64,000 nucleotides of DNA from Clostridiales bacterium (GTDB lineage Bacteria > Bacillota > Clostridia > Monoglobales > WRBX01). Below, piece by piece: positions 9,854 to 63,524 of this stretch (positions within the stretch are counted from its first letter, which is position 1; the number at the start of each line of letters is the position of its first letter). The translations under genes were made by a program, and so were the position numbers. The DNA is taken from assembly GCA_031263785.1 (NCBI GenBank), contig JAISFC010000023.1, forward strand, positions 20,679 to 84,678. The letters run 5' to 3'. The notes beneath the pieces were generated by a model. It had not been told where the DNA came from and ran no database searches. It saw nothing but the letters and a program-made list of their open reading frames with translations.

Positions 9854-10549
9854 ATGGCTCACACCTTTATTTTCACGGGCAATAATATCGAAATGGCACA
9901 GGAACGCGCTAAGCGGCAGGCTGCTCATGTCGGGGACATAGTTATCGCGAATAATCAGCGATTCGACCCCGATAATGAGGGGAAGCCCGCTTTTTCAATT
10001 GAGGGTGTGCGGCGTTTGCAAAATGAGGTGTATGCCGCGCCATTTGGCGAAAATAAAATAATAATCGTCCCGAATACGGATTTGATGGGGATCCCCGCGC
10101 AAAATGCTATGCTTAAAATTCTCGAAGAACCTCCTGAAAACTGCGTATTTTTTTTGGTTGTAGAAAATCCTAAAAAACTTTTGCCCACTATTCTCTCGCG
10201 CGCCGAGCTGGTCCGCACCCCCGCACCCTCCGAGCTCGAATTTATAAATCAAACTAAAGCGAAAAATCCCGAATTATATAAAAATATTTCCAACCTGGCG
10301 GTGCGTGCTTTTTCCGGCAAATCCGCCGATAAATATCGCGCAATTACGTTTTTAAACGAGTGCAAAGAAGACAAGCGCGACGTCCTGAACATCCTCAAAT
10401 GCATTTTTTCCTTGCATTCCGAAGACACTTCTGATATAATAACTAAGGCGGTTATACAAGAGCGTCTGGCTTCAGCCGAGCAGCGGCTTGCCGGGAATTG
10501 CAATTGGAATACCGTCGTCTGGGGGATTTTTACTGAAAGAAAAAGGTGA
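9854..10549 (+). CDS. holB: DNA polymerase III delta-prime subunit (short form)
   Basis: AHTFIFTG (the HAYLFxG box, with a degenerate P-loop) and AQNAMLKILEEPPENCVFFLV...LLPTILSRAE (the clamp-loader sensor region). It is followed by PSP1/ricT, as in Bacillus. Confidence 0.8.
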   Translation: MAHTFIFTGNNIEMAQERAKRQAAHVGDIVIANNQRFDPDNEGKPAFSIEGVRRLQNEVYAAPFGENKIIIVPNTDLMGIPAQNAMLKILEEPPENCVFFLVVENPKKLLPTILSRAELVRTPAPSELEFINQTKAKNPELYKNISNLAVRAFSGKSADKYRAITFLNECKEDKRDVLNILKCIFSLHSEDTSDIITKAVIQERLASAEQRLAGNCNWNTVVWGIFTERKR

Positions 10550-15016: not shown

Positions 15017-15045
15017 TTGACATTTCCCTTCCGTCGTTATATACT
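15017..15045 (+). promoter_or_regulatory. Sigma-A type promoter (TTGACA-17-TATACT), about 230 nt upstream of the response regulator
   Basis: TTGACA at 15017-15022, a 17-nt spacer, and TATACT at 15040-15045. Confidence 0.55.
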
Positions 15046-15275: not shown

Positions 15276-15998
15276 GTGTCATCTAGAAAAATTCTGGTCG
15301 TCGACGATGAAGCGCCTATTGTTGACATCTTGCGATTTAACTTAAAGAAAGAGAATTACGAAGTCCTCGAGGCGTATGACGGTGAAAAGGCTGTGGAAAT
15401 CGCGCTGGATACGGACCCGGACTTAATACTGCTGGATGTGATGCTCCCCAAAATGGACGGATTTTCGGCATGTCAAAAGATACGCAAGAAATCGCAGGTT
15501 CCCATAATCATGCTGACTGCCCGCGAGGAAGAGGTGGACAAGGTATTGGGGTTGGAGCTGGGCGCTGACGATTATATCACAAAACCTTTCTCAATCCGTG
15601 AGCTTATGGCGCGCGTTAAGGCCAATTTGCGCCGCGCGGACACGGACCTTTTGGCGGCGAATCAGGCAATCGCGGACGCAACCGCGCACAACGACAATAT
15701 TATCCAGCAAGGCGTGATAAGCGTCGACCTGAACCGTTACGAGACGCGCAAGGACGGGCAATTGCTGGACTTGACTCTGCGGGAATTTGAATTATTAAAA
15801 TTCTTGATTCTTCAGCCCGAGAAAATTTACTCGCGCGAAAGTCTGTTGGAAAAAGTGTGGGGATATGAGTATTACGGCGATATCCGTACTGTTGACGTGA
15901 CAATCCGCCGCTTGCGAGAAAAGCTCGAGGACAACCCGTCGAACCCGGAATACGTTTGCACAAAACGCAGTCTGGGCTACTATTTCGCGGCACATTAA
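15276..15998 (+). CDS. OmpR/PhoB-family response regulator (WalR/YycF-like); no adjacent histidine kinase
   Basis: Receiver motifs ILVVDDE, LILLDVMLPKMDG and DDYITKPF. Winged-helix LTLREFELLKFL...TVDVTIRRLREKLE. GTG start after GAAGGAG. Confidence 0.9.
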   Translation: MSSRKILVVDDEAPIVDILRFNLKKENYEVLEAYDGEKAVEIALDTDPDLILLDVMLPKMDGFSACQKIRKKSQVPIIMLTAREEEVDKVLGLELGADDYITKPFSIRELMARVKANLRRADTDLLAANQAIADATAHNDNIIQQGVISVDLNRYETRKDGQLLDLTLREFELLKFLILQPEKIYSRESLLEKVWGYEYYGDIRTVDVTIRRLREKLEDNPSNPEYVCTKRSLGYYFAAH

Positions 15999-16028: not shown

Positions 16029-19000
16029 TTGGCGTCCGAATTTTTTATTGGAGTGATATTATTGACTTCTTATGAGCAGTTCAAATTGAATCAGGAAAAG
16101 CTGATTAACAGCTTGGCAACCGACCCTCCTCCCTCAAATGCGCCGACGCAAGGCAGTGTCATATGGGGCGAGGTCGGCGCGTTCAGCGGCAAAACACGCA
16201 CCGTCGGCGCGGGAACCATAGACGATATGAGCGGAACCGTCAACATCCTCGGCGAAGTTTTTTTCCTTAGAACGCGCGATATTTGGGGAGGCAAACTGCT
16301 GATTAAATTTGATGTTGAGACGGAAGATTCCATGTGCGTATCCTGCAAGCTCATCCTCGAGAAAACCGTTTCCACCTCGGTGCGTAGCAATGTGATAAAC
16401 TCCCTGAAAGTAGGCACAAATATACTGCTTCGCGGTGACGCTCAATATGATAAATACTCGCGCGAGATTGTTCTGAATACTCTGGCGATAAAATTACTTC
16501 CGCCCACTCCCGTGCGTCCCGACAACGCGCCCGAAAAGCGGGTTGAGCTGCATCTTCACACGCAAATGAGCGCAATGGACGGCGTTTCTCCTGCTTCCGA
16601 CCTAATCGCCCGCGCGATACATTGGGGGCATTCTGCTATGGCAATCACCGACCATGGCGTCGTTCAGGCGTTCCCCGACGGGCATAAAGCCGCGCGAAAA
16701 CACAAGAATTTTAAGCTTATTTACGGCGTTGAAGCCTACCTTTCCGCGGCTTCATCCACGGAGAATCCGACCTCCACAATTCCTCCAAAATATTATCACG
16801 CCGTTATTTTGGTGCAAAATTACGAGGGCTTGCGCAATTTATATCAATTAATTACGGACTCCCATATAAATAATTTCTATAAAAAACCCCGCATTTCAAA
16901 ACAGCTTTTAGCCGCAAACCGTCAGGGGCTGCTGCTTGGCTCCGCATGTGAGCAGGGCGAACTTTTTCGCGCGATTCTGGATGGAAAGCCACAGACTGAG
17001 ATTGATGAAATTGCGGATTTCTACGATTATTTTGAGGTAATGCCTCTTGGCAACAACAAGTTTATGGTTGAAAACGGCATCACGGATTTCGACGGATTAA
17101 AAGAGATAAATAGGAAGATTATCGAGCTGGGGCGCCGGAAAGGCAAGCTCGTGACAGCAACGGGCGACGTTCATTTTCTGGACGAAAAACACGCAAAAAA
17201 TCGCGCTATTTTGCAAGCGGGGCAGGGCTTCGCGGACGCCGATAATCAAGCTCCTTTATTTTTCCACACAACCGCCGAAATGCTCGCGGAATTTGATTAT
17301 CTCGACGATGCCACCGCGCGCGAAATCGTCATAACAAATCCCAATAAAATTGCCGATAAAATCGAGCGGATTCAGCCCATTCCCGACGAAACCTTCCCCC
17401 CCGTCATCGAGGGGTCGGAGCAGGAAATACAGCAGCTGTGCTACACCCGCGCGGCGGAAATTTACGGCGAAAATCTGCCCGAAACCGTGGCGAACCGCAT
17501 GGAGAAAGAGTTGAATAAAATCAACAAATACGGCTTCTCCGTGATGTACATAATCGCTCAAAAGCTTGTGGCGAAGTCACTTTCCGACGGTTACGTCGTC
17601 GGCTCACGCGGCTCGGTCGGCTCATCATTTGTGGCGTTTTTATGCGGTATTACCGACGTCAACGCCCTCCCGCCCCATTATATTTGCCCGCGTTGCCATC
17701 ACAGCGAGTTTATCACCGACGGTTCGCAAATTTGCGGCATCGACATGCCCGATAAGCCATGCCCGCACTGTTCGTTGGAAAAGATGACCAAAGACGGCTA
17801 CGACATTCCTTTTGAGACTTTTCTGGGCTTTGAAGGCGATAAGGAACCCGATATTGACCTGAATTTTAGCGGAGATTATCAGACCACCGCCCACAAATAC
17901 GTCGAGGAGCTTTTCGGCGTCAACAACGTTTACCGCGCAGGGACGATAAGCACGCTGGCGGACAAAACCACCTATGGGTTCGTGAAAAAATACATGGAGT
18001 CGCGCGGCGAAAACAATGTAAATAACGCGACAATCAACCGACTTGTGCAAGGCTGCATCGGCGTCAAGCGTACGACGGGTCAGCACCCCGGGGGCGTCAT
18101 GGTCCTTCCAAAAGGGCATGATATTCACGAATTTTGCCCCGTCCAGCACCCGGCGGACGACAAGAGTAAAAACGTCCTGACCACCCATTTCGACTACCAT
18201 TCCATCAGCGGGCGCCTGCTCAAGCTCGATATTTTGGGGCATGACGACCCGACCGTGATTAAAGTGCTGGAGGATTTCACCGGTATCAGCGCGAAAAGCG
18301 TCCCGCTCGACGATCCCGCGACCCTAAGTCTGTTCACCTCAACCAAAGTGCTGGGCGTCACGCCTGAACAAATAGGCAGTAAAGTGGGCACATTTGGGGT
18401 TCCCGAGTTCGGCACGAAATTTGTCCGCCAGATGCTCCTGGACACAAAACCAACCACTCTCGCCGAGCTTATTCGCATCAGCGGGCTCTCGCACGGCACC
18501 GACGTTTGGCTTAATAACGCGCAAAATTTGGTGAAAGAAGGCGTCGCGTCCCTAAAGGAAATCATATGCACCCGCGACGATATCATGACCTATTTGATGT
18601 ATCAGGGGCTGACGCCGAAGTCCGCGTTTGACATCATGGAGCGCGTGCGCAAGGGGAAAAAGCTGCTGCCGTCCGACGAGAAAATCATGCGCGAACACCG
18701 CGTTCCCGAGTGGTACATAAGCTCATGCAACCGAATCCAGTACATGTTCCCGAAGGCGCACGCCGTGGCATACGTCACGATGGCGTTCAGAATCGCGTGG
18801 TACAAGGTGCATCAGCCGCTGGCGTTTTATCTCGCGTATTTTTCCGTGCGCGCCGACGAGTTCAATGCTCAGACCATGACCGACCAACAAATCGCCTTAA
18901 AAACCCTGCGCAAACTGGAAACAATTGAAAATACGCTCAACGCAAAGGACAAAAACGTCATAACAATCCTGCAGGTTGTCCGCGAAACTTTCGCGCGCGG

Positions 19001-19268
19001 TTTTGAGTTCCTGCCCGTGGACCTATACTCGTCCGAGGTATCGAAATTTACACAGGAAAACGGCAAGATTCGCCCGCCGCTTATTTCCGTGCCCGGGCTT
19101 GGCGAAAACGCCGCGATTGCCATAAAAGAAGCGCGTGACAAATCGCCCTTTTCATCTGTGGACGACCTTAAAACGCGCGGAAAAGTCAACAAAACGGTCA
19201 TGGAGCTTTTGGAACAACAAGGCTGCCTCGAGGGTATGCCGGAAAGCGACCAATTGAGCTTTTTCTGA
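16029..19268 (+). CDS. polC: PolC-type DNA polymerase III alpha subunit, short form lacking the inserted exonuclease domain
   Basis: OB-like N-terminus, PHP motif VELHLHTQMSAMDG..AITDHG, PolC zinc module CPRCHHSEF...CPHC, and catalytic PDIDLNFSGDYQ. A TTG at 16062 after GGAGTGA is an alternative start. The PHP-N to PHP-C junction is only GVEAYLSAASSTENPTSTIPPKYYHAVILVQN. Confidence 0.85.
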   Translation: MASEFFIGVILLTSYEQFKLNQEKLINSLATDPPPSNAPTQGSVIWGEVGAFSGKTRTVGAGTIDDMSGTVNILGEVFFLRTRDIWGGKLLIKFDVETEDSMCVSCKLILEKTVSTSVRSNVINSLKVGTNILLRGDAQYDKYSREIVLNTLAIKLLPPTPVRPDNAPEKRVELHLHTQMSAMDGVSPASDLIARAIHWGHSAMAITDHGVVQAFPDGHKAARKHKNFKLIYGVEAYLSAASSTENPTSTIPPKYYHAVILVQNYEGLRNLYQLITDSHINNFYKKPRISKQLLAANRQGLLLGSACEQGELFRAILDGKPQTEIDEIADFYDYFEVMPLGNNKFMVENGITDFDGLKEINRKIIELGRRKGKLVTATGDVHFLDEKHAKNRAILQAGQGFADADNQAPLFFHTTAEMLAEFDYLDDATAREIVITNPNKIADKIERIQPIPDETFPPVIEGSEQEIQQLCYTRAAEIYGENLPETVANRMEKELNKINKYGFSVMYIIAQKLVAKSLSDGYVVGSRGSVGSSFVAFLCGITDVNALPPHYICPRCHHSEFITDGSQICGIDMPDKPCPHCSLEKMTKDGYDIPFETFLGFEGDKEPDIDLNFSGDYQTTAHKYVEELFGVNNVYRAGTISTLADKTTYGFVKKYMESRGENNVNNATINRLVQGCIGVKRTTGQHPGGVMVLPKGHDIHEFCPVQHPADDKSKNVLTTHFDYHSISGRLLKLDILGHDDPTVIKVLEDFTGISAKSVPLDDPATLSLFTSTKVLGVTPEQIGSKVGTFGVPEFGTKFVRQMLLDTKPTTLAELIRISGLSHGTDVWLNNAQNLVKEGVASLKEIICTRDDIMTYLMYQGLTPKSAFDIMERVRKGKKLLPSDEKIMREHRVPEWYISSCNRIQYMFPKAHAVAYVTMAFRIAWYKVHQPLAFYLAYFSVRADEFNAQTMTDQQIALKTLRKLETIENTLNAKDKNVITILQVVRETFARGFEFLPVDLYSSEVSKFTQENGKIRPPLISVPGLGENAAIAIKEARDKSPFSSVDDLKTRGKVNKTVMELLEQQGCLEGMPESDQLSFF

Positions 19269-19313: not shown

Positions 19314-19343
19314 GCGCAACTTTATTGTTTGCGCCGCTTTTTT
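19314..19343. terminator. Hairpin between convergent polC and the downstream gene (possible bidirectional terminator)
   Basis: GCGCAA, a 9-nt loop, TTGCGC, then CGCTTTTTT. It overlaps the last codons of the minus-strand ORF. Confidence 0.4.
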
Positions 19344-20074
19344 CCGTTTGCTTTTTTGTAGCGCACCACGCATAAGACGCCTGCCACAAAAGTGGAGCAT
19401 ATTTCCGCCGAAATTAAAAATACAAAAAAATTCCCAATGGGGCTTATCAATGTGCAAAAGCTGTATAACGCCGCTAAAACCGCGGTAATTGCCACGAATC
19501 CTTTCCACGCGTACGCGTCCATGCGCAAAGACGGCATAGGTGCGCTGAACCCGACTAAAATTCCGTAACACAAAAGAGGCGCAAGACGCACGATTAAGCT
19601 GCCCGAAAAGCGCATCCTCCCTGCCGCCAATAGCACCGCGTACATAAAAAACGCGCAATCTACCGCGCAAACAGACATCCACCGCACCACACGCGCCAGC
19701 CTCTTTATCCGCCCGCGGTTGCGTTTTTTGCGCTCTGCCCGCCGCCGGTCCTCATGCTTCCTCGTCATCTCCACCGGGTCATAAATCTCGATTATAGTCC
19801 CCTTTTCGCCGCCCGCCCGCGCCGCAAGCCCATGCGGAACCAGCTCCCTATTCATCGCATCCACACATATGGCAGGGTCAAAATACAGGTTGCCGTCCGC
19901 ATAGAATATGTATTCCTTTTTTTCCAGAAATTCCCGCAAATATTTGTCCGCCCATCGCTTACTTTCCTTGGCGTACATGTCCTTAACGGCGGCATATTGA
20001 CGCTCCCTTTCCGCGAGCTCAAGCGCCTTTTTCTCGGGTATCCCTTCAAACGCCCTTCTATAATCCGGCATCAA
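19322..20074 (-). CDS. Hypothetical membrane protein (soluble charged N-terminal half, 3-4 TM C-terminal half)
   Basis: 250-aa ORF with no motif I recognise. An Arg/Lys-rich linker RRRAERKKRNRGRIKR precedes the hydrophobic segments. Confidence 0.5.
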   Translation of the reverse strand: MMPDYRRAFEGIPEKKALELAERERQYAAVKDMYAKESKRWADKYLREFLEKKEYIFYADGNLYFDPAICVDAMNRELVPHGLAARAGGEKGTIIEIYDPVEMTRKHEDRRRAERKKRNRGRIKRLARVVRWMSVCAVDCAFFMYAVLLAAGRMRFSGSLIVRLAPLLCYGILVGFSAPMPSLRMDAYAWKGFVAITAVLAALYSFCTLISPIGNFFVFLISAEICSTFVAGVLCVVRYKKANGKKRRKQ

Positions 20075-29670: not shown

Positions 29671-32926
<3,256 letters not shown>

Positions 32927-37530: not shown

Positions 37531-40500
37531 TTAACGCGCCTGGTTCAATACGCGAAGGAGCATCACCGTAGATTCCGCGCGGGTCGCGTGCTCATTAGGA
37601 TAGAAGAAACGTCTGCCCTGCGTCTCGTCGAAGCCTTTTGCCAGTCCGGATTTTCTCGCCAGCTCCACCGCGACGGTTGCCCAATCCTTGATGTTATTCT
37701 TGTCCGTGAACTCATAATCTACGTTCGCGTCCTGCAACGCCAGCCCCTTGTAATCCAGATACCTCGATATCATCGTCATCATTTCCTGCCGCGTGATTCT
37801 TTCGTTCGGCGAGAATGTGATGGCGTCCAAACCGTTGGCGATTCCTTTGCTCCAGCCCCACGCGACGTATTTTGCGTGCCAATCATCGACCGATACGTCC
37901 AAAAACGGTTCGTGCCCCTCAAGCGCGTCGCCGCTCATAGTCGCAAGCATTTTCATCATTTCCGCCCGCGTTATCGCCCTGTTAGGCGCGAATGAGCCAT
38001 CGTCCATGCCTTGCGCGATGCCCTGCCCCGCCATGTCGTAAATCTCCGTTTCCGCCCAATGCCCCGAAACATCGTCAAAACTTACGGCGGTCCCGGGTAT
38101 CGGGTCGGGCTCATCTTCGCCGTCGTCGGGCGTCGCCGCGGGAGTGGGCTGCGCATTTTCCGTCGGAATCGGCGTCGGCTGCGAGGGCAACACATCATTC
38201 TCAGTCGGTCCCGGTGTCGGTTGTGGAGGCAGCACGTCATTTTCGGTCGGTCCCGGTGTCGGCTGCAGAGGCAACACATCATTTTCCGTCGGTCCCGGTG
38301 TCGGCTGCGGACTGGGCGTCGGCGTCGGCACAATCACAGCTATATTAAACTCTACCCTCATCGGCTCCACATTCAGATAATCCCCGATAAAGCTTATAAC
38401 CGCGGTCGCTTTGCCGACATTGACGTTATTATTGTAGCTCACCGCGTAATCCACGTTTTTCTCAAGCGTTTTTAGCCCCTGACGCACCGTCGTTTCGGGC
38501 TCCCTAAGTCCGCCCGTGAACGCTTGCGTGGGAATTTCATCTATCACAATTTCCTGAATCCACCGCGCATATAGGGTCATCGCGCCGGTTACCGCATCGG
38601 CGGTGAAATTCCACATCGTCACGAAAGAATTGTTAGTGAACCAGCCCGCGAATGTCACCCCTGCTTTAAGCGGACTTATCGGCTTTTGAACCAACCCGTT
38701 CAGCAATATATTTTGAGTTTCCGGCACAGATTCGCCGCCGTCCGCGTCAAATAACACATCGTAATGAGGTATCGGTGTTGGACTCGGTGTCGGACTCGGT
38801 GTCGGGCTTGGTGTCGGACTTGGCGTCGGACTCGGTGTCGGGCTCGGTGTCGGACTTGGTGTCGGACTCGGTGTCGGACTTGGTGTTGGGCTTGGTGTCG
38901 GACTTGGTGTTGGACTTGGCGTCGGACTTGGTGTCGGGCTCGGCGTTGGGCTCGGTGTCGGACTGGGCGTTGGGCTCGGTGTCGGACTTGGCGTCGGGCT
39001 GGGTGTTGGGCTGGGTGTTGGGCTGGGTGTCGGCGCAACTATCGGTCCTGCGACCTTTGAATAAATATTCCCCGAATACCCGCTTGCCGTGTTGGGTTTG
39101 TACCAAACACGTATCGTATATCCGGTCCACGAGGAAGTCACCGTTACCGTCCGCGCGTTCGTATCATCTAATATGTACCATGTGTTTCCGTCCTTCGATC
39201 CCTGCCACTGATACGCCGTTGTTCCCGTCGGGAGCATGGCTGCCGTCAGCGTGTCTCCGGATTTAATCCCGCCTGTCGGCGCAGCCAACATTCCCGATAG
39301 CTGAATCGCTTGAATCGGCCCTATATATGATGTATCCAGCGTTCCCACGTACCCTGCCGCGGAGTAGAACCTGCACAGGAAATACGCGCCTATATCATCC
39401 GCGTTCGTCGTATACGTCGCGCCCGTCGACCACGGTATCCATGACGAATTCGCCATGCTCCTATACCACACTCGGCTCGCGGCTCCCGTCGGCATTGCCG
39501 CTGATAATACCGTCCCGACCGTTAGCCCGTTCGACATCTGTATCGCGCCCGGCTTCGCCATTGCTCTCGCCGCAATTGCGCCCACCGGTTCCGTGTATAC
39601 CGTGCCTTGGTACCCCGTGGTCGCATCGTATCGGATTCTGAAATAGTAGCCCACTTGTGACGACGAGGGTGTGTAAGACGCGCCGCTCGAACCGGCGGAA
39701 TACCACGCGCCGCCCGCTGACGTTTTATATTGCCACTCCGTGCGGGTGCCTCCCACCGGCGTACTCGGCGCATACAACGCGTTGCCCCACTCTAAACCCG
39801 CGTACGTTATCCCCGCCGGCTTCCCGATATTCAGCGAAGTTATGGGTCCTATGAGTTTTGAATAAATATATCCCGAATATCCCTTTGCCGTGTCAGCTTT
39901 GTACCAAACGCGTATCGTATAGCCAATCCACGAGGACGGCACTGTTACCGTTCGCGCGTTCGTATCGTTTAATATGTACCACGTGCTTCCGTCCTTCGTA
40001 CCCTGCCACTGGTACGCCGTTGTCCCCGTGGGAAGCACTGCTGCCGTCAGCGTGTTCCCGTAAGCCGAACCGCCCGTCGGAGCAGCCAGCGTCCCCGTTA
40101 GCTGAATCGCCTTAATCGGTCCTATATATGCCGTGTCGACCGTTCCCGTGTACCCTGACGCGGGATAGAATCGGCACAGGAAATATGCCCCGATATCATC
40201 CGCGGTCGTCGTATACGTCGCGCCCGTCGACCATGGCAACCACACCGAATTCGATATACATCTGTACCACGTTCGGCTCGCCGCGCCCGTTGGCATCGCC
40301 GCCGATAACACCGTCCCCACCGTCAGCCCGTTCGACATCTGTATCGCTCCCGGTGTCGATATTCCCCGCGCCGCAATCGGACCGTACGAGTTGGTCATCT
40401 TCGCGACTCCCGAATAGCCTGAAAGCACGTCGTATCTAACGGAAAAATATTTGCCCACATCGCTTGCCGTCGTCGTATATGTGCTCGAGCGGGTGGAGAT

Positions 40501-42312
40501 GCCTACCCAGCCCGTTGCCGACGTCCAATATTCCCAGCGGTCTATATACATTCCGCCGGGGGTTGACGGCGCGTAGAGCGTGCCGCCTACCGTTTTAGAG
40601 CCCGTGATTTCGCCCAATGTGCCGGAAATAGGCTTTAAGTCAGCCGCCGTAATCGGACCGTACGAGTTGGTCATTTTCGCGTTCCCTGTATATGCCGAAA
40701 ACACATTGTACTTGACGGAAAAATATTTGCCCACATCGCTTGCCGTCGTCGTGTATGTGCTCAAGAAGTTGGATGTGCCCACCCAGCCCGTTGCCTGCGT
40801 CCAATATTCCCAGCGTTCTATGTACATGCCCGTTGGGGCGGTTGGCGCGTAGAGTGTGCCGCCCACGGTTTTAGAACCCGTAATCTCACCTAAGCTCCCC
40901 GAAGCCGCCTGTTGAGTCTTTGTAATCGGTCCGACCTGCGCCGTGTATACAGGACCTCCCGTGTACCCCGTAATTGCGTCGTAACGCACCCTAAAGTAGT
41001 AGCCCACTTGTGACGCTGTCGGGGTGTAAGTCGAGCCTACCGCACCGGCATAACTCCACGCACCGCTCGACGATGTTTTATATTCCCACCATGTAATACT
41101 TCCTCCTGTCGGGTTGCTCGGCGCGCGTAACGTATTTCCGTATTGCAAGCTTGAATACGTTATGTTCCCCGGCGTTCCTATAGATTTACTTTGCGTCGTA
41201 ATCGGTCCCACCGGCGCTGTGTATACGGGTCCGCCTGTATATCCCGAGGTTGCGTCGTAGCGCACCCTAAAATAGTAGCCCCCTTGTGACGATGTCGGCG
41301 AGTACGTTGATGCGTTTGAGCCTATTGAGTACCACGTGCCGCCCGACGACGTTGCATATTCCCATTGCGTACGGCTCCCGCCAGTCGGATTGCTCGGCGC
41401 ATATAACACAGCGCTGCCGATTTGCAAGCTTGAATATGTTATGTTCGCAGGCGTCCCGATACTTTTACTTTGCGCCGTAATCGGTCCCACCTGCGCCGTG
41501 TATACAGGTCCGCCCGAATATCCCGAAATCGCGTCGTAGCGCACTCTGAAGTAATGTCCTACTTGCGTTGCTGACGGCGTGTACGATGCACCGACGTTGC
41601 CCATAGAATACCACGTGCCGCTGGACGACATTTTATATTCCCACTGTGTGCGGCTCCCTCCCGTCGGGTTGCTCGGCGCATATAACGCGTTGCCGTATTG
41701 CAGGCTGGAATATGTTATATTTCCCGGCGTCCCCATAGTCTGGGTTGATGACGACGTTCCCTTAATGCCCGGGAAATAAGGCGACGAAATAGTCCCGTTG
41801 CCCTTTGACCCCACCTCGTAAGCGGGCACCGAAGCCGATACGCTCTCATTATACGCAAGCGTAGAGCTGTTGAAAACCGTTGGGGACGTGCTGTATACCT
41901 GCTTGTACGCGCTCCCCACGCCGTAGCCTATTCCACCGTAGTAATTCTGCCAGCCCGCGTAAGTATAATGCGCGTTCACTCCATAGACGGTCGTACCTTT
42001 AGGCACGTAGCCGGACGAAGAACAATACCTTAGCTGATTTTCATACGCCGAAAAAGCCAAGCCGGCAACTCCAATCTGTTCACCGACCTCAGATTGATAC
42101 ACCGTTATCTTGACCAGCGAATACTTTGAAGCATCGCTATTGGTGAAATCTTCATTGATGAAAAATTTTCCGCTAAAATCGGTAGGAACCGCTTGCGCCG
42201 AGTCCAAGTACATAGAAGAATCGTCAAGCGCAGGAAAAAACTGCAAGATGCTCGTCATCATAAAAGAAAACAATAAGCAAAGCGTTAAGGTCTTCTTTAA
42301 CATAAAAACCAC
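37531..42312 (-). CDS. Giant SLH-anchored cell-surface protein with about a dozen tandem modules of roughly 90 aa
   Basis: Signal peptide. Repeated modules such as [40 protein letters not shown]...YTP...[23 protein letters not shown] long (PSPT)n linker, a Listeria-Bacteroides-type repeat ([14 protein letters not shown]...FAGWF), three [13 protein letters not shown] repeats, and C-terminal SLH domains ([17 protein letters not shown].., [17 protein letters not shown]..). Confidence 0.85.
38175..38320 (-). repeat. Three tandem 48-nt coding repeats ([13 protein letters not shown])
   Basis: Near-identical 48-nt units are visible in the sequence. Confidence 0.8.
38770..39040 (-). repeat. 12-nt tandem coding repeat array encoding a (PSPT)n linker
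   Basis: GGTGTCGGACTC/GGTGTCGGGCTT-type units are repeated across about 270 nt. This array generates several spurious Arg/Trp/Cys-rich ORFs in other frames. Confidence 0.9.
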
Positions 42313-47138: not shown

Positions 47139-50100
47139 CTACCTGCTCATTATTAAATCCGCGTTGCTCAGCACCGATTTTGTAAAGTTCAATTCCTGCG
47201 CCGCTAAAATCATGCTCCCCGCGGTTTTCGTGACCAGTAGCTCTGGCGCCAAATCGTTAGTGGTTTTTTTCAATCGGAATCTTGTGCGGTCCAGCGCGTC
47301 GCCGTCCCTCAAAATGTGCGCCATCTCCATGAGCCTTTCCTTCCGCTCCGGAGAAATGCCCTCAAGCTGCGCATTTAACAGCTCTTCAATCTTGCTCGCG
47401 GGGTCCAAAGAATGCGCCTCAATTATAAACATAATTTCCCTAACCTCGCCATCGGAAAAACCCGAACTGACCATTTCCCGATATTTTTTTGCGCCCACCG
47501 CCCCGTGGTCCTCATTCGCGTCGTTGTGAACCCTGCCGATATCATGATATTTCGCCGCCTCCACGATAATCCTCACATCATCGTCCGAAAGCCCCTCATT
47601 TTTGGCAATGTAATACGAAAAAACCGTCACATTATCCGCGTGCGTCTTGCCGTGTATCCCCTTTAAATAAAATTTATCGTCGATATTCTCGCTCAATTCT
47701 TCGTTGAACCACTCAAATCCCGTCTTGCCCTCAAACTCCTTTATGCCACAAATCACGTCGCCCATGTTTTTCTGCTTGCAAATATCACCGTAATTCTGCA
47801 TTTTTATCGAGAGACTATTGTATGGGTCCGTGAATTCCCGTCCGTAGTCCCTTTGGAAAATCTTGCTGTACATGCTAACGGCTTCCTCCGCCTTCCGCGC
47901 CGCAAGGAACTCGCGAATCCCCCTTAAACTCGTCAACTCCGCGCTTTCAGACGTCGTGGGCGAATCTTCCGCGAGACGAGCCGTCAATCCAACGCGCTCA
48001 ATGCTCTGCTTAGCCATCGTTTTCTTATCCAGCCGACTTTGCGATATGTAATCAATTGTATTCTCAAAAGTACGCATACTTTCTTCGGAACCTCGGGCTT
48101 TAACGGCTTTATAAAGCTGTTCCGCCCTTCGCGGTATGTCCGAGCGTTTCAGGAAAGCGTCGCCGTCAGGACGATTATTGTGCATCCAAGCGTACCCGCT
48201 ACAATATGAGGTAAGCAGCAGCAAATAATCCTCCGTAAGCGCCGGCGTTATTTCCCCCTCGGCGATAATTTTTTCAAGCTCCGTGATTTTTTGCCTGTGC
48301 TTCATCTTATACTTCCTCGCGTCTATCTTGACAATCGGCAACGCAGGGTCAAACGCCTTTGCCGCCTTCCTTTGCGCGTTCGTAATCGTGCCGTTGAAAC
48401 ATAACACACAATTCGGCATAATCCGCTCCCCGCTCTCCGCCTCGCGGTACAACACATACTCGTTATGATAGTGCAACGTTCTTTTCGCCGTTTCGTCGGA
48501 AGTCATGCACTCATAAGTCGTCGCCGTTACATTTCTGTTGTTCAGCCCGTAAGCCCCCGACGCGCTGGAACGCAAGTCGGTCGGACCGGACATAACATAC
48601 ATATCAGGCGTAAAATTAACAAATCCCAGCCTGATACTGCCTTCCGTTTCGCCGTACTCCGAAACATGCCCCAAAAAATTATTATTCACCAAACAGGCGC
48701 AAAGATATGCACTGCCCCGCTCGCGAGTTGTGAAGTCCGAGATTTTCGCGCCGCTCCCGCACCCGTTAAGCGTGTGCACAATCATGGAAAAGTCCTGACC
48801 GTTCAGCTCAATAACCTTCAGCCCGGACTTTGAATCAATTGTATTATGAAGCGTATGTATGTCTATCATGGACTTTTTAAGCTCAGCCCCGTACAATTTT
48901 TTTAATTCCTTCTTAAAATCGCAGAATTGACCGTTAATTTCGTCCAGCCAGTTGTCCGTCAACGCCGCGTTGCTGAGCAGCTGCTTATTTAATTTTATAG
49001 CTAATTCCTTGAGCAATTCCTTGTCCCGGCATTCTTCGATTTTTGATAAAATGTCCGTAAACAACGTGAAATATTTTATTTTATCGGCATACTCCGCGCC
49101 CAATTTTCCGCCCAAATCCTTCAACTTTTTTATGCTCGCAATTCTAAGCAAAATTTCCGATATCTTTTCCGGCGGAGTGCAGCAGAGAATAGAATAAATG
49201 CTCCGTTTAATCTCAAAAATATCATCCGAATTTATAAGCTTGCTATTTTTTATGTGCGCCAAATACGGCAACATACGCAAATCATGTACGCTATTGACTT
49301 CATATGTTTTCTCCGAATTAAACAGCTTTTTAAGCATAAAAAAATCGTACTTGAAAACATCGGACTCCATAAGCTCGCCTATAAGCTGCTGATAGTCCGC
49401 GCAACCGTTGATTACCTTCTGGAATAGAGACAAATTAAACGAATCCTTGGGCATCCCGTTGATTTCCTTCAGCTTTTCAAATATACGGAGCGCGGCTTCA
49501 AGCTTGCCGGTTTCATAAAGCTCGTTCAGTTTCAGGGTCTTTTTCGGGACCTCCAAATATTTTATTATGCTGTAAACGTTTTTCTCGCCAATTAATAAGG
49601 TAACCGCCGGGTTGAGCAGCGCGCCGTTTTGCATGCTGAAAACGATATTGCCCAGTTTTTTATACACGTCCTTGACAAACGTCGTTTTGGGGATATTGAG
49701 CAAATTATACAGCTTCCCCGCGTACTTCCCCGTGTGTATTCCGCCTGATTCAGCTAAAAGATGCGGCAGAATACTCACATCCGCCCCGCTGAATTTCGGA
49801 CGTTCAACGGGATTGACAATGCCCAAAAATAAATCCATCCGCAGCTGAAAACTTGCCCCCTTAATAAGATTGGGATTCTCGTTTATCAGCGCGGTCAAGC
49901 CTTTTTTATCCTGCAAAAATTTCCGCGTACAATAATATAGAAGATAATCATTCGATTTCGCCGCGATATTCATCAAGCTGAAATTATCCTTCAAATGCTC
50001 GGGTATATTCTTATATTCCGCCCCGTCCTTCGTTAAAACCTTCTTCAAAATCGAAATTTCATTCTTAAATCTGTCCCCGATTGCGTTCACAAACGAATTA

Positions 50101-51242
50101 TTGCCGCGCCCGGACTCCAAAGAAGGGCTCAAATGCTCCAGCGCAAGCCTCACCAGCCACCTATTATTCCTGTATTTTTCGTCCAATATCGCTATGTTGC
50201 GCCCGTCCTCCGTGAGCATCTTTTCTATATGCGCGGGAGCAATCATATCATTGGGCAAATATTTTACTAAATCGGGGAATTCGTACCTCAAGACGTTCAT
50301 AAACGCACGCACGTCATAAAAATTTTTGATGGGCGAAATAATCGCATCGCCATAATCCGAATCATCCGTCCGCCACTGTTCGTTCATTTGCCGCTTGCTC
50401 TCGTCAAGGGCTTGCACAAAAAAAGGGTTCGCCTCCGCAAGCGTCAGGAATTTCCTCGCAATATCTTCCGTCATGTGTTCGACGGGGAAACGGCTGATTG
50501 TGAACGGATACACCTCAAGCGCGACCTTCGCAAATTCGGGGCTCTTAAAAAACGGCAACAGCATGGGCGGTATTGGTTGCCCGTACGCTTCCTCATAAAT
50601 CACATGTTCATGTTTGTTTTCCGCCAAAAAGTCCTCCAGCAGCTTACGCGCGTCCGCCTCCGTCATGTTTTCGGGCTGCAACACAAACTCGTCGTACACC
50701 GCCGAACGCTTTGTGTCGGTCCGCAAAAACGCCCTGATAACCCTCTCGTTTTCCGCGTGAATCGTCGGCAAATGAGCCATGTCAATCCCGCGCGAAACGA
50801 GCGTTATCGCCTGTTCCTCGGTTATATATCTCAACGCGTTGCGCAGCGTCCTGCTGTTTTTTAAATCATCATTGGTCACATTCGGGATAAAAGCCTGCAC
50901 AATTTCATCTTCCACGACAATTCGGGGGTCCACACACCATAGACAATCCACGTATCCATGCGCAAATATAAACGCCAGCTCTTTGTCGGTTATAAACACA
51001 TCTTCCGCCTTGGAATTCAGCCACTCCGCCACCGCCGCGATTACTTCGGGGTTCTGCTTCGACCGCGGCGGCAAATGATTTACCAAATCGTACGGAGACA
51101 TCACAGCCCGCTGTTGAGAAAAAATGTTAATAATAGCTTTATCTCTCAAAAAAGCATAGTCGGTATTTTTCTCAATCTCAATTGCCCCGCCGTCCTCCAT
51201 GCCGACCGAAACGTCAGCCGTATCAAATGCACTCGGAGCCAT
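47139..51242 (-). CDS. 1367-aa hypothetical protein with a C-terminal HD-domain phosphohydrolase module
   Basis: The last ~200 aa contain HGKTHADNV...AAKYHDIGR...DHG...EAHS...LRDGDALDR (an H..HD..H..D pattern). The remaining ~1150 aa have no motif I recognise. No signal peptide or TM helix. No convincing SD at ATG 51242. Confidence 0.65.
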   Translation of the reverse strand: MAPSAFDTADVSVGMEDGGAIEIEKNTDYAFLRDKAIINIFSQQRAVMSPYDLVNHLPPRSKQNPEVIAAVAEWLNSKAEDVFITDKELAFIFAHGYVDCLWCVDPRIVVEDEIVQAFIPNVTNDDLKNSRTLRNALRYITEEQAITLVSRGIDMAHLPTIHAENERVIRAFLRTDTKRSAVYDEFVLQPENMTEADARKLLEDFLAENKHEHVIYEEAYGQPIPPMLLPFFKSPEFAKVALEVYPFTISRFPVEHMTEDIARKFLTLAEANPFFVQALDESKRQMNEQWRTDDSDYGDAIISPIKNFYDVRAFMNVLRYEFPDLVKYLPNDMIAPAHIEKMLTEDGRNIAILDEKYRNNRWLVRLALEHLSPSLESGRGNNSFVNAIGDRFKNEISILKKVLTKDGAEYKNIPEHLKDNFSLMNIAAKSNDYLLYYCTRKFLQDKKGLTALINENPNLIKGASFQLRMDLFLGIVNPVERPKFSGADVSILPHLLAESGGIHTGKYAGKLYNLLNIPKTTFVKDVYKKLGNIVFSMQNGALLNPAVTLLIGEKNVYSIIKYLEVPKKTLKLNELYETGKLEAALRIFEKLKEINGMPKDSFNLSLFQKVINGCADYQQLIGELMESDVFKYDFFMLKKLFNSEKTYEVNSVHDLRMLPYLAHIKNSKLINSDDIFEIKRSIYSILCCTPPEKISEILLRIASIKKLKDLGGKLGAEYADKIKYFTLFTDILSKIEECRDKELLKELAIKLNKQLLSNAALTDNWLDEINGQFCDFKKELKKLYGAELKKSMIDIHTLHNTIDSKSGLKVIELNGQDFSMIVHTLNGCGSGAKISDFTTRERGSAYLCACLVNNNFLGHVSEYGETEGSIRLGFVNFTPDMYVMSGPTDLRSSASGAYGLNNRNVTATTYECMTSDETAKRTLHYHNEYVLYREAESGERIMPNCVLCFNGTITNAQRKAAKAFDPALPIVKIDARKYKMKHRQKITELEKIIAEGEITPALTEDYLLLLTSYCSGYAWMHNNRPDGDAFLKRSDIPRRAEQLYKAVKARGSEESMRTFENTIDYISQSRLDKKTMAKQSIERVGLTARLAEDSPTTSESAELTSLRGIREFLAARKAEEAVSMYSKIFQRDYGREFTDPYNSLSIKMQNYGDICKQKNMGDVICGIKEFEGKTGFEWFNEELSENIDDKFYLKGIHGKTHADNVTVFSYYIAKNEGLSDDDVRIIVEAAKYHDIGRVHNDANEDHGAVGAKKYREMVSSGFSDGEVREIMFIIEAHSLDPASKIEELLNAQLEGISPERKERLMEMAHILRDGDALDRTRFRLKKTTNDLAPELLVTKTAGSMILAAQELNFTKSVLSNADLIMSR

Positions 51243-52733: not shown

Positions 52734-56375
<3,642 letters not shown>

Positions 56376-58833: not shown

Positions 58834-63524
<4,691 letters not shown>

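Follow-up and report, generated by a model that had tools for sequence, protein, structure and literature searches.

The analysed window is a 64-kb stretch of a 97.9-kb contig from a Clostridiales bacterium and carries a polC gene at 16029..19268 (+). An OmpR-type response-regulator gene (15276..15998, +) ends 31 nt before polC on the same strand. No terminator-like site was found between the two genes, and their adjacency is kept at the locus of the closest orthologue. A promoter-like site upstream of the response regulator (15017..15045, +; TTGACA-17-TATACT, 11/12, a consensus match only) is a candidate promoter for a transcript comprising both genes. The window represents housekeeping chromosome with mnmE, holB, the dnaB helicase gene, tilS, hpt, pnp and recG, and the locus of the nearest orthologue (P0002) is syntenic with it. 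A phage or plasmid origin of polC was rejected in view of the conserved synteny and of the neighbouring genes, which serve chromosomal housekeeping and replication. No second C-family polymerase is encoded in the window; the genome may have dnaE1, a second polC or dnaQ-like genes elsewhere.

The polC frame is unbroken across 1079 codons and encodes 1079 aa when read from TTG 16029 (NCBI MDR1101101.1). The ORF is present as given in a preliminary description of this DNA, but the start chosen there is probably not the best one: TTG 16062, with a GGAG 8 nt upstream, is the likelier start and yields 1068 aa as in the JGI call. The assignment to the PolC type was borne out. The product passes both NCBIfam PolC equivalog cut-offs, with 1444 bits for NF001688 (cut-off 873) and 1347.9 bits for TIGR01405 (cut-off 1043.45), whereas the best NCBIfam DnaE model reaches 246 bits, far under its cut-off of 1260. 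The PolC equivalog match falls into two stretches, the main one of which connects residues 254-1079 of the query with model positions 613-1444. The nearest named homologues are found in Petroclostridium and Acetivibrio. Pfam assigns a PHP domain (residues 173-332), DNA_pol3_alpha (466-737), the fingers (741-878) and HHH_6 (991-1071).

The protein begins with an N-terminal remnant (residues 1-70; 16029..16238, +) that replaces the ~237-aa N-terminal domain (NTD) of PolC and does not resemble an NTD HMM; residues 1-40 are modelled by AlphaFold with low confidence. It is followed by an OB-fold domain (residues 70-157; 16236..16499, +), a predicted beta-barrel with a pLDDT of about 85-93. This domain has diverged: Pfam PF01336 (OB) does not match the protein. 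However, residues 71-160 align with the OB region of 3f2b, the structure of G. kaustophilus PolC-ΔNΔExo, and a fold search matches tRNA-synthetase OB folds. The PHP domain consists of an N-terminal half (residues 171-239; 16539..16745, +) with the ligands H175, H177, D184, H209 and E235 and a C-terminal half (residues 254 to about 400; 16788..17228, +) with H257, C307, D380 and H382. Between both halves, at the site of the ~210-aa DEDDh exonuclease in canonical PolC, lies only the linker SAASSTENPTSTIP (about residues 240-253; 16746..16787, +; pLDDT about 53). The polymerase palm/thumb core, identified as Pfam DNA_pol3_alpha (residues 466-737; 17424..18239, +), contains the catalytic residues D608/D610, which are part of PDIDLNF (residues 607-613; nt 17847-17867, +), and D734. 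The PolC-type Cys4 zinc module CPRC/CPHC (C553, C556, C578, C581) is encoded at 17685..17771 (+). The fingers domain defined by Pfam (residues 741-878; 18249..18662, +) and a tandem helix-hairpin-helix (HhH) duplex-binding domain (Pfam HHH_6, residues 991-1071; 18999..19241, +) complete the enzyme together with the C-terminal beta-clamp-binding motif QLSFF (residues 1075-1079; 19251..19265, +; motif definition in PMC3919608). The OB fold precedes PHP, and a DnaE-type C-terminal OB/CTD is missing, as the protein stops after HhH and the clamp motif. The PHP ligands, the zinc module and PDIDLNF had been recognized correctly in the preliminary description. Its C-terminal HhH/tau-binding region holds for HhH only; QLSFF is a beta-clamp motif, and there is no established tau-binding region.

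The built-in DEDDh exonuclease (Exo) is a textbook hallmark of PolC, itself an antibiotic target. In the query PolC, both this insert and the NTD were shown to be cleanly deleted. A profile search, as suggested earlier for the apparent lack of exonuclease motifs, yielded no Pfam match to RNase_T/PF00929 in the ORF even at E<=1, and nothing in the query corresponds to the exo segment (residues about 428-637) of the full-length PolC 9qpc. A MAFFT alignment of the query with 120 homologues was used to measure the segment between the PHP halves and the region preceding the OB fold. The inter-PHP segment is bimodal among the aligned PolCs, with one group at about 210 aa and another at 11-42 aa, to which the query belongs with about 16-20 aa; the short link between the PHP halves reported before is thus real. 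The pre-OB region measures 59-70 aa vs about 237 aa in other PolCs. Custom HMMs for Exo and NTD were made from these segments of the Exo-containing (Exo+) homologues. The Exo HMM had no match in the query PolC, its clade or the window, and the HMM for the NTD, a domain with the subdomains NI and NII, did not match the query even at E<=100, in agreement with the NTD loss proposed initially. A six-frame search of the entire window with both HMMs found nothing (best E about 1), i.e. there are no frameshifted remnants, and a split or frameshifted polC gene was thus ruled out. The deletion boundaries coincide with those of other natural Exo-less PolCs.

Since the query is known from one contig of a metagenome-assembled genome, it was considered that the gene might have lost ~600 nt during assembly, be a pseudogene, or be a degenerate second copy beside a full-length polC. 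Such an artefact or decaying gene is highly improbable. Eleven divergent relatives with 58-67% identity, found in other samples and obtained with other assemblers, have the same architecture and form one 12-member clade with the query (NJ bootstrap 85%), which argues against an assembly artefact. The sequence of the nearest orthologue is identical in two assemblies made independently, ENA and Logan. An assembly deletion, one of the caveats of the preliminary description, is thereby effectively excluded. The frame of 1079 codons is uninterrupted, other natural Exo-less PolCs have matching deletion borders, and every catalytic residue is conserved. A weak additional point is that each of the 80 genome loci among the matches listed, none of which belongs to the query's own clade, comes from a different assembly. 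In the clade members P0007 and P0014, polC occupies its classical position in pyrH-frr-uppS-cdsA(-dxr-rseP-ispG)-polC, and this canonical locus argues against a degenerate extra copy. The ORF 16029..19268 is an intact chromosomal PolC gene that naturally lacks exonuclease and N-terminal domain.

The remaining enzyme is highly conserved. All nine PHP metal ligands (HHDHEHCDH: H175, H177, D184, H209, E235, H257, C307, D380, H382) are kept, and this motif is complete in all PolCs examined, both Exo-less (106/106) and Exo+ (91/91). All 197 aligned PolCs share D608 and D610, likewise C553/C556/C578/C581, and D734 is invariant in alignment A1. Among 284 positions that are at least 98% invariant in 109 PolCs outside the clade, the query retains 270 (95%). 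Its terminus reads ...ESDQLSFF, and Q-x-x-[FL]-[FL] is present in every clade member. The AlphaFold model (pLDDT 88.6) superposes on 3f2b with TM 0.87/0.94 and an rmsd of 2.7 A, and both sequences can be joined in a single continuous 1009-residue alignment with 49% identity. With polymerase aspartates, Cys4, QLSFF and the nine PHP ligands intact, the gene looks functional, as had been supposed. We infer that the product still polymerises on the beta clamp, by analogy with engineered ΔNΔExo PolCs of S. aureus and G. kaustophilus, which are active or well folded.

The clade also provides hints to the order of events. As the nearest orthologue is only 67% identical to the query, synonymous sites are saturated. 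Subdomain NI is retained in the basal members P0014, P0007 and P0008 and absent in the query; hence, judged from the sequences, NTD loss was apparently stepwise. In none of 100 NJ bootstrap replicates was the clade nested within another Exo-less group, so its Exo loss looks independent of that in other Exo-less PolCs. Among clostridial PolC relatives, there is evidence for 6-12 independent Exo losses. Exo+ PolCs with a short NTD also occur. Tentatively, the clade might record a stepwise natural minimisation, in which Exo and NII would have been lost first and NI later, leaving exactly the core shared with DnaE, with PHP as the sole proofreader and no clamp-loader contact via the NTD. If this were true, the 6-12 losses would mean that PolC can in general do without the DEDDh proofreader as long as its PHP site is active, and the clade would be a natural test bed for the division of labour in PolC+DnaE1 replisomes.

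PolCs without Exo insert have been described before and are still classed as PolC (PMC3919608). They represent 6% of all PolCs (the DEDDh insert is found in about 94%), come from Clostridia/Negativicutes and are paired with DnaE1 (Timinskas et al., NAR 2014; PMC3919608). In complete genomes such as that of Acidaminococcus, they are the only PolC beside DnaE1 (PMC3919608). The A. fermentans protein YP_003399045.1 (1191 aa) has the order NTD-OB-PHP-Pol3-HhH (PMC3919608). In this literature, PHP proofreading is the favoured alternative to the missing insert (PMC3919608). The query resembles these proteins in the absence of the Exo insert, the intact HHDHEHCDH, the C-terminal clamp motif and its clostridial host, a Clostridiales bacterium from one of the two groups named. 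In contrast, they keep an NTD of ~230 aa, whereas in the query the OB fold is preceded by just about 60-70 residues unrelated to it. Furthermore, the DnaE1 pairing is documented for their genomes, while the query is known from the 64-kb window alone. The string OB-PHP-Pol3-HhH has been recorded once, in Table S2 of Timinskas et al., for the second PolC of a PolC+PolC+DnaE3 genome that belongs to the Thermotogae according to the main text (PMC3919608). This PolC, too, has neither NTD nor Exo and is identical to the query in its domain string. However, it is an extra copy beside a full-length PolC, whereas the query clade belongs to the Clostridia and has members in the canonical polC locus. As Exo-less PolCs have been catalogued in Clostridia since 2013, the query is a more stripped-down version of a known oddity and not a new kind of enzyme. 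The novelty is modest: a clade in which the NTD, too, has been lost, apparently in steps, and evidence for 6-12 independent Exo losses.

Replicative proofreading is normally held indispensable, and the preliminary description had asked where it comes from here, with a DnaQ-like subunit in trans or PHP exonuclease activity as options. We consider it probable that this gene serves an uncultured Clostridia lineage as its resident and functional polC, cut to the OB-PHP-Pol3-HhH core, that any proofreading is performed in cis by PHP, and that the enzyme works in a clostridial-type PolC + DnaE1 replisome. The 3'-5' proofreading activity, if any, would reside in the PHP domain with its nine ligands complete. 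Thermus DnaE proofreads through its PHP domain. The same applies to M. tuberculosis DnaE1 (PMC5636811), which like the query is a C-family enzyme without DEDDh domain and with a complete nine-residue PHP site. However, PHP-proofreading DnaE1 has the DnaE-type order with OB and CTD at the C-terminus, and the query fails the NCBIfam DnaE cut-offs. HHDHEHCDH is the motif by which a PHP domain is called 'active' in the literature (PMC12926913). Since Exo+ clostridial PolCs have preserved it just as well, its presence is not proof of compensation, and no demonstration of PHP exonuclease activity was found for any PolC in the literature consulted. Loss of the NTD, the proposed contact to the clamp loader, would imply that the enzyme attaches to the latter more loosely or in another way.

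Alternatively, proofreading could occur in trans, with a stand-alone DnaQ/epsilon-like DEDDh exonuclease that is encoded elsewhere and binds the PHP domain of PolC (or DnaE1) in place of the insert. Bacterial proteomes contain on average >3 stand-alone DnaQ homologues (PMC12926913), and mycobacteria have DnaQ as second proofreader beside PHP (PMC11348249). This arrangement is nevertheless quite unlikely here. The 64-kb window has no Exo-like ORF, whichever frame is read, and no Exo-less polC in the 80 genome loci listed has a stand-alone DEDDh gene at a distance of up to about 10 kb. The same holds for five of six clade-member loci examined (L081-L085). At the sixth, L086, an RNase_T-family gene lies 9 kb from polC; its product was rejected as an epsilon-like proofreader because it is KapD-like and below every cut-off. 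Moreover, the PHP site is intact in the query and typically degenerate in epsilon-dependent polymerases (PMC3919608).

Another proposal concerns the division of labour: DnaE1 would do the bulk of chromosome replication, leaving the stripped PolC as an accessory polymerase with relaxed demands on fidelity and tethering. Timinskas et al. raised this possibility for Clostridia with PolC+DnaE1, and according to them all Exo-less PolCs occur in such genomes (PMC3919608). The stepwise domain loss inside the clade, the 6-12 Exo losses among the relatives and the existence of NTD-short Exo+ PolCs fit this proposal, and a PolC that sheds accessory domains one after another might just as well be under relaxed functional demand. 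However, the core is conserved as in canonical PolC with 95% of the near-invariant positions retained, the clamp motif is kept, clade members still have polC at the ancestral locus, replication genes surround the query polC, and the 64-kb window shows no DnaE1 for this organism. An accessory role is rather unlikely. Natural Exo-less PolCs indicate that fidelity in some Firmicutes can be ensured by the ancestral PHP nuclease or else by a partner polymerase, a point made since 2013 on the basis of complete genomes.

The resident minimal PolC preferred here can also be compared with engineered enzymes. Gka-PolC-ΔNΔExo (3f2b) has almost the same boundaries as the query (49% identity, TM 0.87/0.94). 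Sau-PolC-ΔNΔExo is fast, with a kpol of 330 s-1 (PMC3656037), so the ΔNΔExo architecture is catalytically competent. Both are laboratory deletions of full-length enzymes, whereas the query is a natural inherited gene. Its value lies in being a naturally minimal PolC with the boundaries of a crystallisation construct and a candidate for biochemical work on PHP proofreading and NTD-independent replisome attachment.

The polC ORF announced in the preliminary description is present: positions 16029..19268 (+) are open over 1079 codons without interruption. The TTG at 16029 is the start called by NCBI (MDR1101101.1). A TTG at 16062, called by JGI (1068 aa), is preceded by GGAG 8 nt upstream and would, judged by this motif, be the better start. 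The protein passes both NCBIfam PolC equivalog models (1444 bits versus a cut-off of 873; 1348 versus 1043) and scores far under the cut-offs of the DnaE models. Pfam assigns the PHP domain to residues 173-332, the Pol III alpha core to 466-737, the fingers to 741-878 and the HhH domain to 991-1071. The nine PHP ligands, CPRC...CPHC and PDIDLNF, all quoted previously, were found, and the polymerase aspartates D608, D610 and D734, the Cys4 zinc module, the HhH domain and the clamp motif are intact. Of the C-terminal HhH/tau-binding region described before, only the HhH part holds: the protein ends in the beta-clamp motif QLSFF and not in a documented tau-binding region.

The DEDDh 3'-5' exonuclease domain (Exo) and the N-terminal domain (NTD) are truly missing. 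A Pfam search of the ORF with a threshold as lax as E<=1 gave no match to RNase_T/DEDDh. When the protein is aligned with the 120 best homologues, the stretch that joins the PHP halves falls into two sharply separated length classes: 74 sequences have about 210 aa there and 47 have 11-42 aa, the window's PolC about 16-20 aa. The region before the OB fold comprises 59-70 aa compared to about 237 aa in most aligned sequences. Custom HMMs for Exo and the NTD, trained on Exo+ homologues, had no match when all 64 kb of the window were searched in six frames (best E about 1), so there is no frameshifted or split remnant. A second C-family polymerase was not found within the window either. Exo-less proteins retain the short stubs that flank Exo in Exo+ relatives, and on alignment the junction appears as a clean excision.

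The NCBIfam PolC match is split in two stretches, the main one pairing residues 254-1079 with model positions 613-1444. In a search against solved structures, full-length PolC (9qpc) also aligned in two stretches, with its residues about 428-637 skipped, whereas residues 71-1079 gave a single continuous alignment with 3f2b. The latter is an engineered G. kaustophilus PolC with deleted N-terminal and exonuclease domains. The natural protein has almost the same boundaries as such constructs, which structural biologists had to engineer. An AlphaFold model built from a 47-sequence alignment (mean pLDDT 88.6, pTM 0.81; low confidence confined to residues 1-40 and the linker 241-253) superposes on 3f2b with TM 0.87/0.94 and an rmsd of 2.7 A over 1017 columns. 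From this superposition, the PHP barrel is predicted to close over the short linker, and the OB fold at residues 70-157, which Pfam no longer recognises, to be retained.

An assembly artefact, a pseudogene or an extra polC copy could produce such a gene, but all three are highly improbable. The architecture recurs in eleven other proteins (1047-1146 aa, 58-67% identical) that come from different samples and assemblers, and together with the window's PolC they form one clade with 85% NJ bootstrap among 197 PolCs. The nearest orthologue, P0002, is identical in an ENA and a Logan assembly and has the same neighbourhood: mnmE, U32 peptidase, PSP1, holB, response regulator, polC, gdpP, dnaB, tilS and hpt. 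Two deeper clade members, P0007 and P0014, are encoded where Firmicutes classically have polC, downstream of pyrH-frr-uppS-cdsA(-dxr-rseP-ispG), which identifies their genes as the resident, orthologous polC. The window, too, is chromosomal DNA with housekeeping genes: mnmE, a delta-prime-like gene, the replicative helicase, tilS, hpt, gdpP, pnp and recG. In addition, 284 positions are invariant to at least 98% across 109 PolCs from outside the clade; the protein keeps 270 of them, and its substitutions at the others are mostly conservative.

A functional-looking PolC devoid of Exo and NTD is thus supported, and its core feature is already in the literature. Timinskas et al. found 6% of PolCs without the Exo insertion, all but one in Clostridia and Negativicutes and always in PolC+DnaE1 genomes, where they account for 16% of PolCs (NAR 2014, PMC3919608). 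The window's polC is a member of this known variant class. The named examples from Acidaminococcus fermentans and A. intestini (NTD+OB+PHP+Pol3+HhH, PHP motif intact) keep the NTD, which the window's protein lacks. The string OB-PHP-Pol3-HhH occurs only once in their Table S2, for the second of the two PolCs of a PolC+PolC+DnaE3 genome assigned to Thermotogae in the main text (PMC3919608); in contrast, the clade described here belongs to Clostridia and has its genes at the canonical polC locus. The accessible portions of further literature on PolC contain no discussion of a form lacking both domains. The additions are modest: the NTD is lost too, the proteins form a coherent uncultured clade with a resident polC, and their Exo loss is apparently independent.

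At one genome per GTDB species, a scan yielded at least 80 polC loci; among the 80 listed, about 61 are Exo-less and 17 Exo+, a ratio biased to Exo-less matches because the query itself lacks Exo. The Exo-less loci among the matches listed come from MAGs labelled Acutalibacteraceae, Lachnospiraceae, Oscillospiraceae, Syntrophomonadaceae and Negativicutes. None of the 80 belongs to the window's clade, which is known so far from metagenomes only. In distance (NJ) trees of 197 sequences and 945 core columns, Exo-less proteins form 8 maximal groups (6-12 over 100 bootstrap replicates). The clade was nested in a larger Exo-less group in 0/100 replicates, and the proteins at the shortest distance from it are Exo+ (P0006, P0013, L005). 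This argues that Exo was lost repeatedly. Again from tree and profile comparisons, the NTD looks as if eroded stepwise within the clade: in the deeper-branching P0014, P0007 and P0008 the NTD HMM still recognises the first subdomain (positions 2-75, domain E about 1e-6 to 1e-7), whereas it found nothing comparable in the derived members, i.e. the window's PolC, P0002, P0004, P0005 and P0012, which match neither subdomain. The retained piece comprises about 65-75 aa, the second subdomain being unmatched. Five other PolCs of 1313-1339 aa (P0058, P0082, P0095, P0101, P0113) keep Exo with a short pre-OB region of 105-125 aa, so NTD reduction occurs independently of Exo loss, too.

Engineered S. 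aureus PolC-ΔNΔExo polymerises with a kpol of 330 s-1 (PMC3656037); by analogy, the natural architecture should be polymerisation-competent. For proofreading, the PHP domain would be the best candidate. Its metal ligands HHDHEHCDH are complete in the window's PolC and in 106/106 Exo-less PolCs examined, a complete set being the literature's criterion for an 'active' PHP domain (PMC12926913), and M. tuberculosis DnaE1 proofreads by such a site (PMC5636811). However, the motif is equally intact in 91 Exo+ relatives and is therefore permissive, not diagnostic. A literature search turned up no PolC for which exonuclease activity of the PHP domain has been reported. Proofreading in trans by an epsilon-like subunit is less likely: the window has no DEDDh gene, and neither do the flanks (about 10 kb) of the Exo-less polC genes in the 80 genome loci listed nor the clade-member loci L081-L085. 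The only one nearby, in L086 (22498-23415 (-), 305 aa, RNase_T family), is found 9 kb away, downstream of the Exo-less polC encoding P0014. It was rejected as epsilon subunit or excised PolC Exo, as NCBIfam matches it best to KapD, at 74.7 bits against a cut-off of 169. Timinskas et al. raised the possibility that DnaE1 is the main replicase of PolC+DnaE1 Clostridia, with PolC under relaxed demands. Repeated and stepwise domain losses agree with this, but the strong conservation of the PolC core and clamp motif is at odds with it. That the clade has a naturally minimised PolC with PHP as sole proofreader and a lost NTD-mediated clamp-loader contact is a tentative and rather doubtful proposal.

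An OmpR-type response-regulator gene (15276-15998 (+)) precedes polC on the same strand, with a gap of 31 nt. No terminator-like site separates the two, and a strong promoter-like site (15017-15045 (+)) precedes the regulator. The closest orthologue's locus (L081 6586-7335; L082 527-1276) has the same adjacency with a gap of 18 nt. Apparently, the regulator is co-transcribed with the replicative polymerase. Such an arrangement is unusual. The delta-prime-like clamp-loader gene (Pfam DNA_pol3_delta2; 9854-10549 (+)) encodes 231 aa, and its counterpart in a related genome (L081 5059-5730) 223 aa; delta-prime usually has around 330 aa. Only positions 70-156 of the 161 in the profile are matched, and no upstream ORF supplies the missing part. 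The lineage that lost the PolC NTD may have a compact clamp-loader subunit. An Oscillospiraceae MAG with an Exo+ polC has a second C-family ORF about 4 kb downstream (L057 17473-20874 (+), 1134 aa stop-to-stop, 151 bits to the window's PolC), presumably DnaE. Very large ORFs (1081-1593 aa), all on the minus strand, occupy 29671-32916, which encodes a BspA-type leucine-rich-repeat protein, 37531-42312, 47139-51242, 52734-56375 and 58834-63387. GC is about 0.41 at 42-46 kb versus about 0.50 elsewhere in the window. The part with these large ORFs may be a surface-protein or acquired region. Directly downstream of polC, a 250-aa ORF on the opposite strand (19322-20074 (-)) has no Pfam match; its C-terminal half appears hydrophobic and membrane-like.
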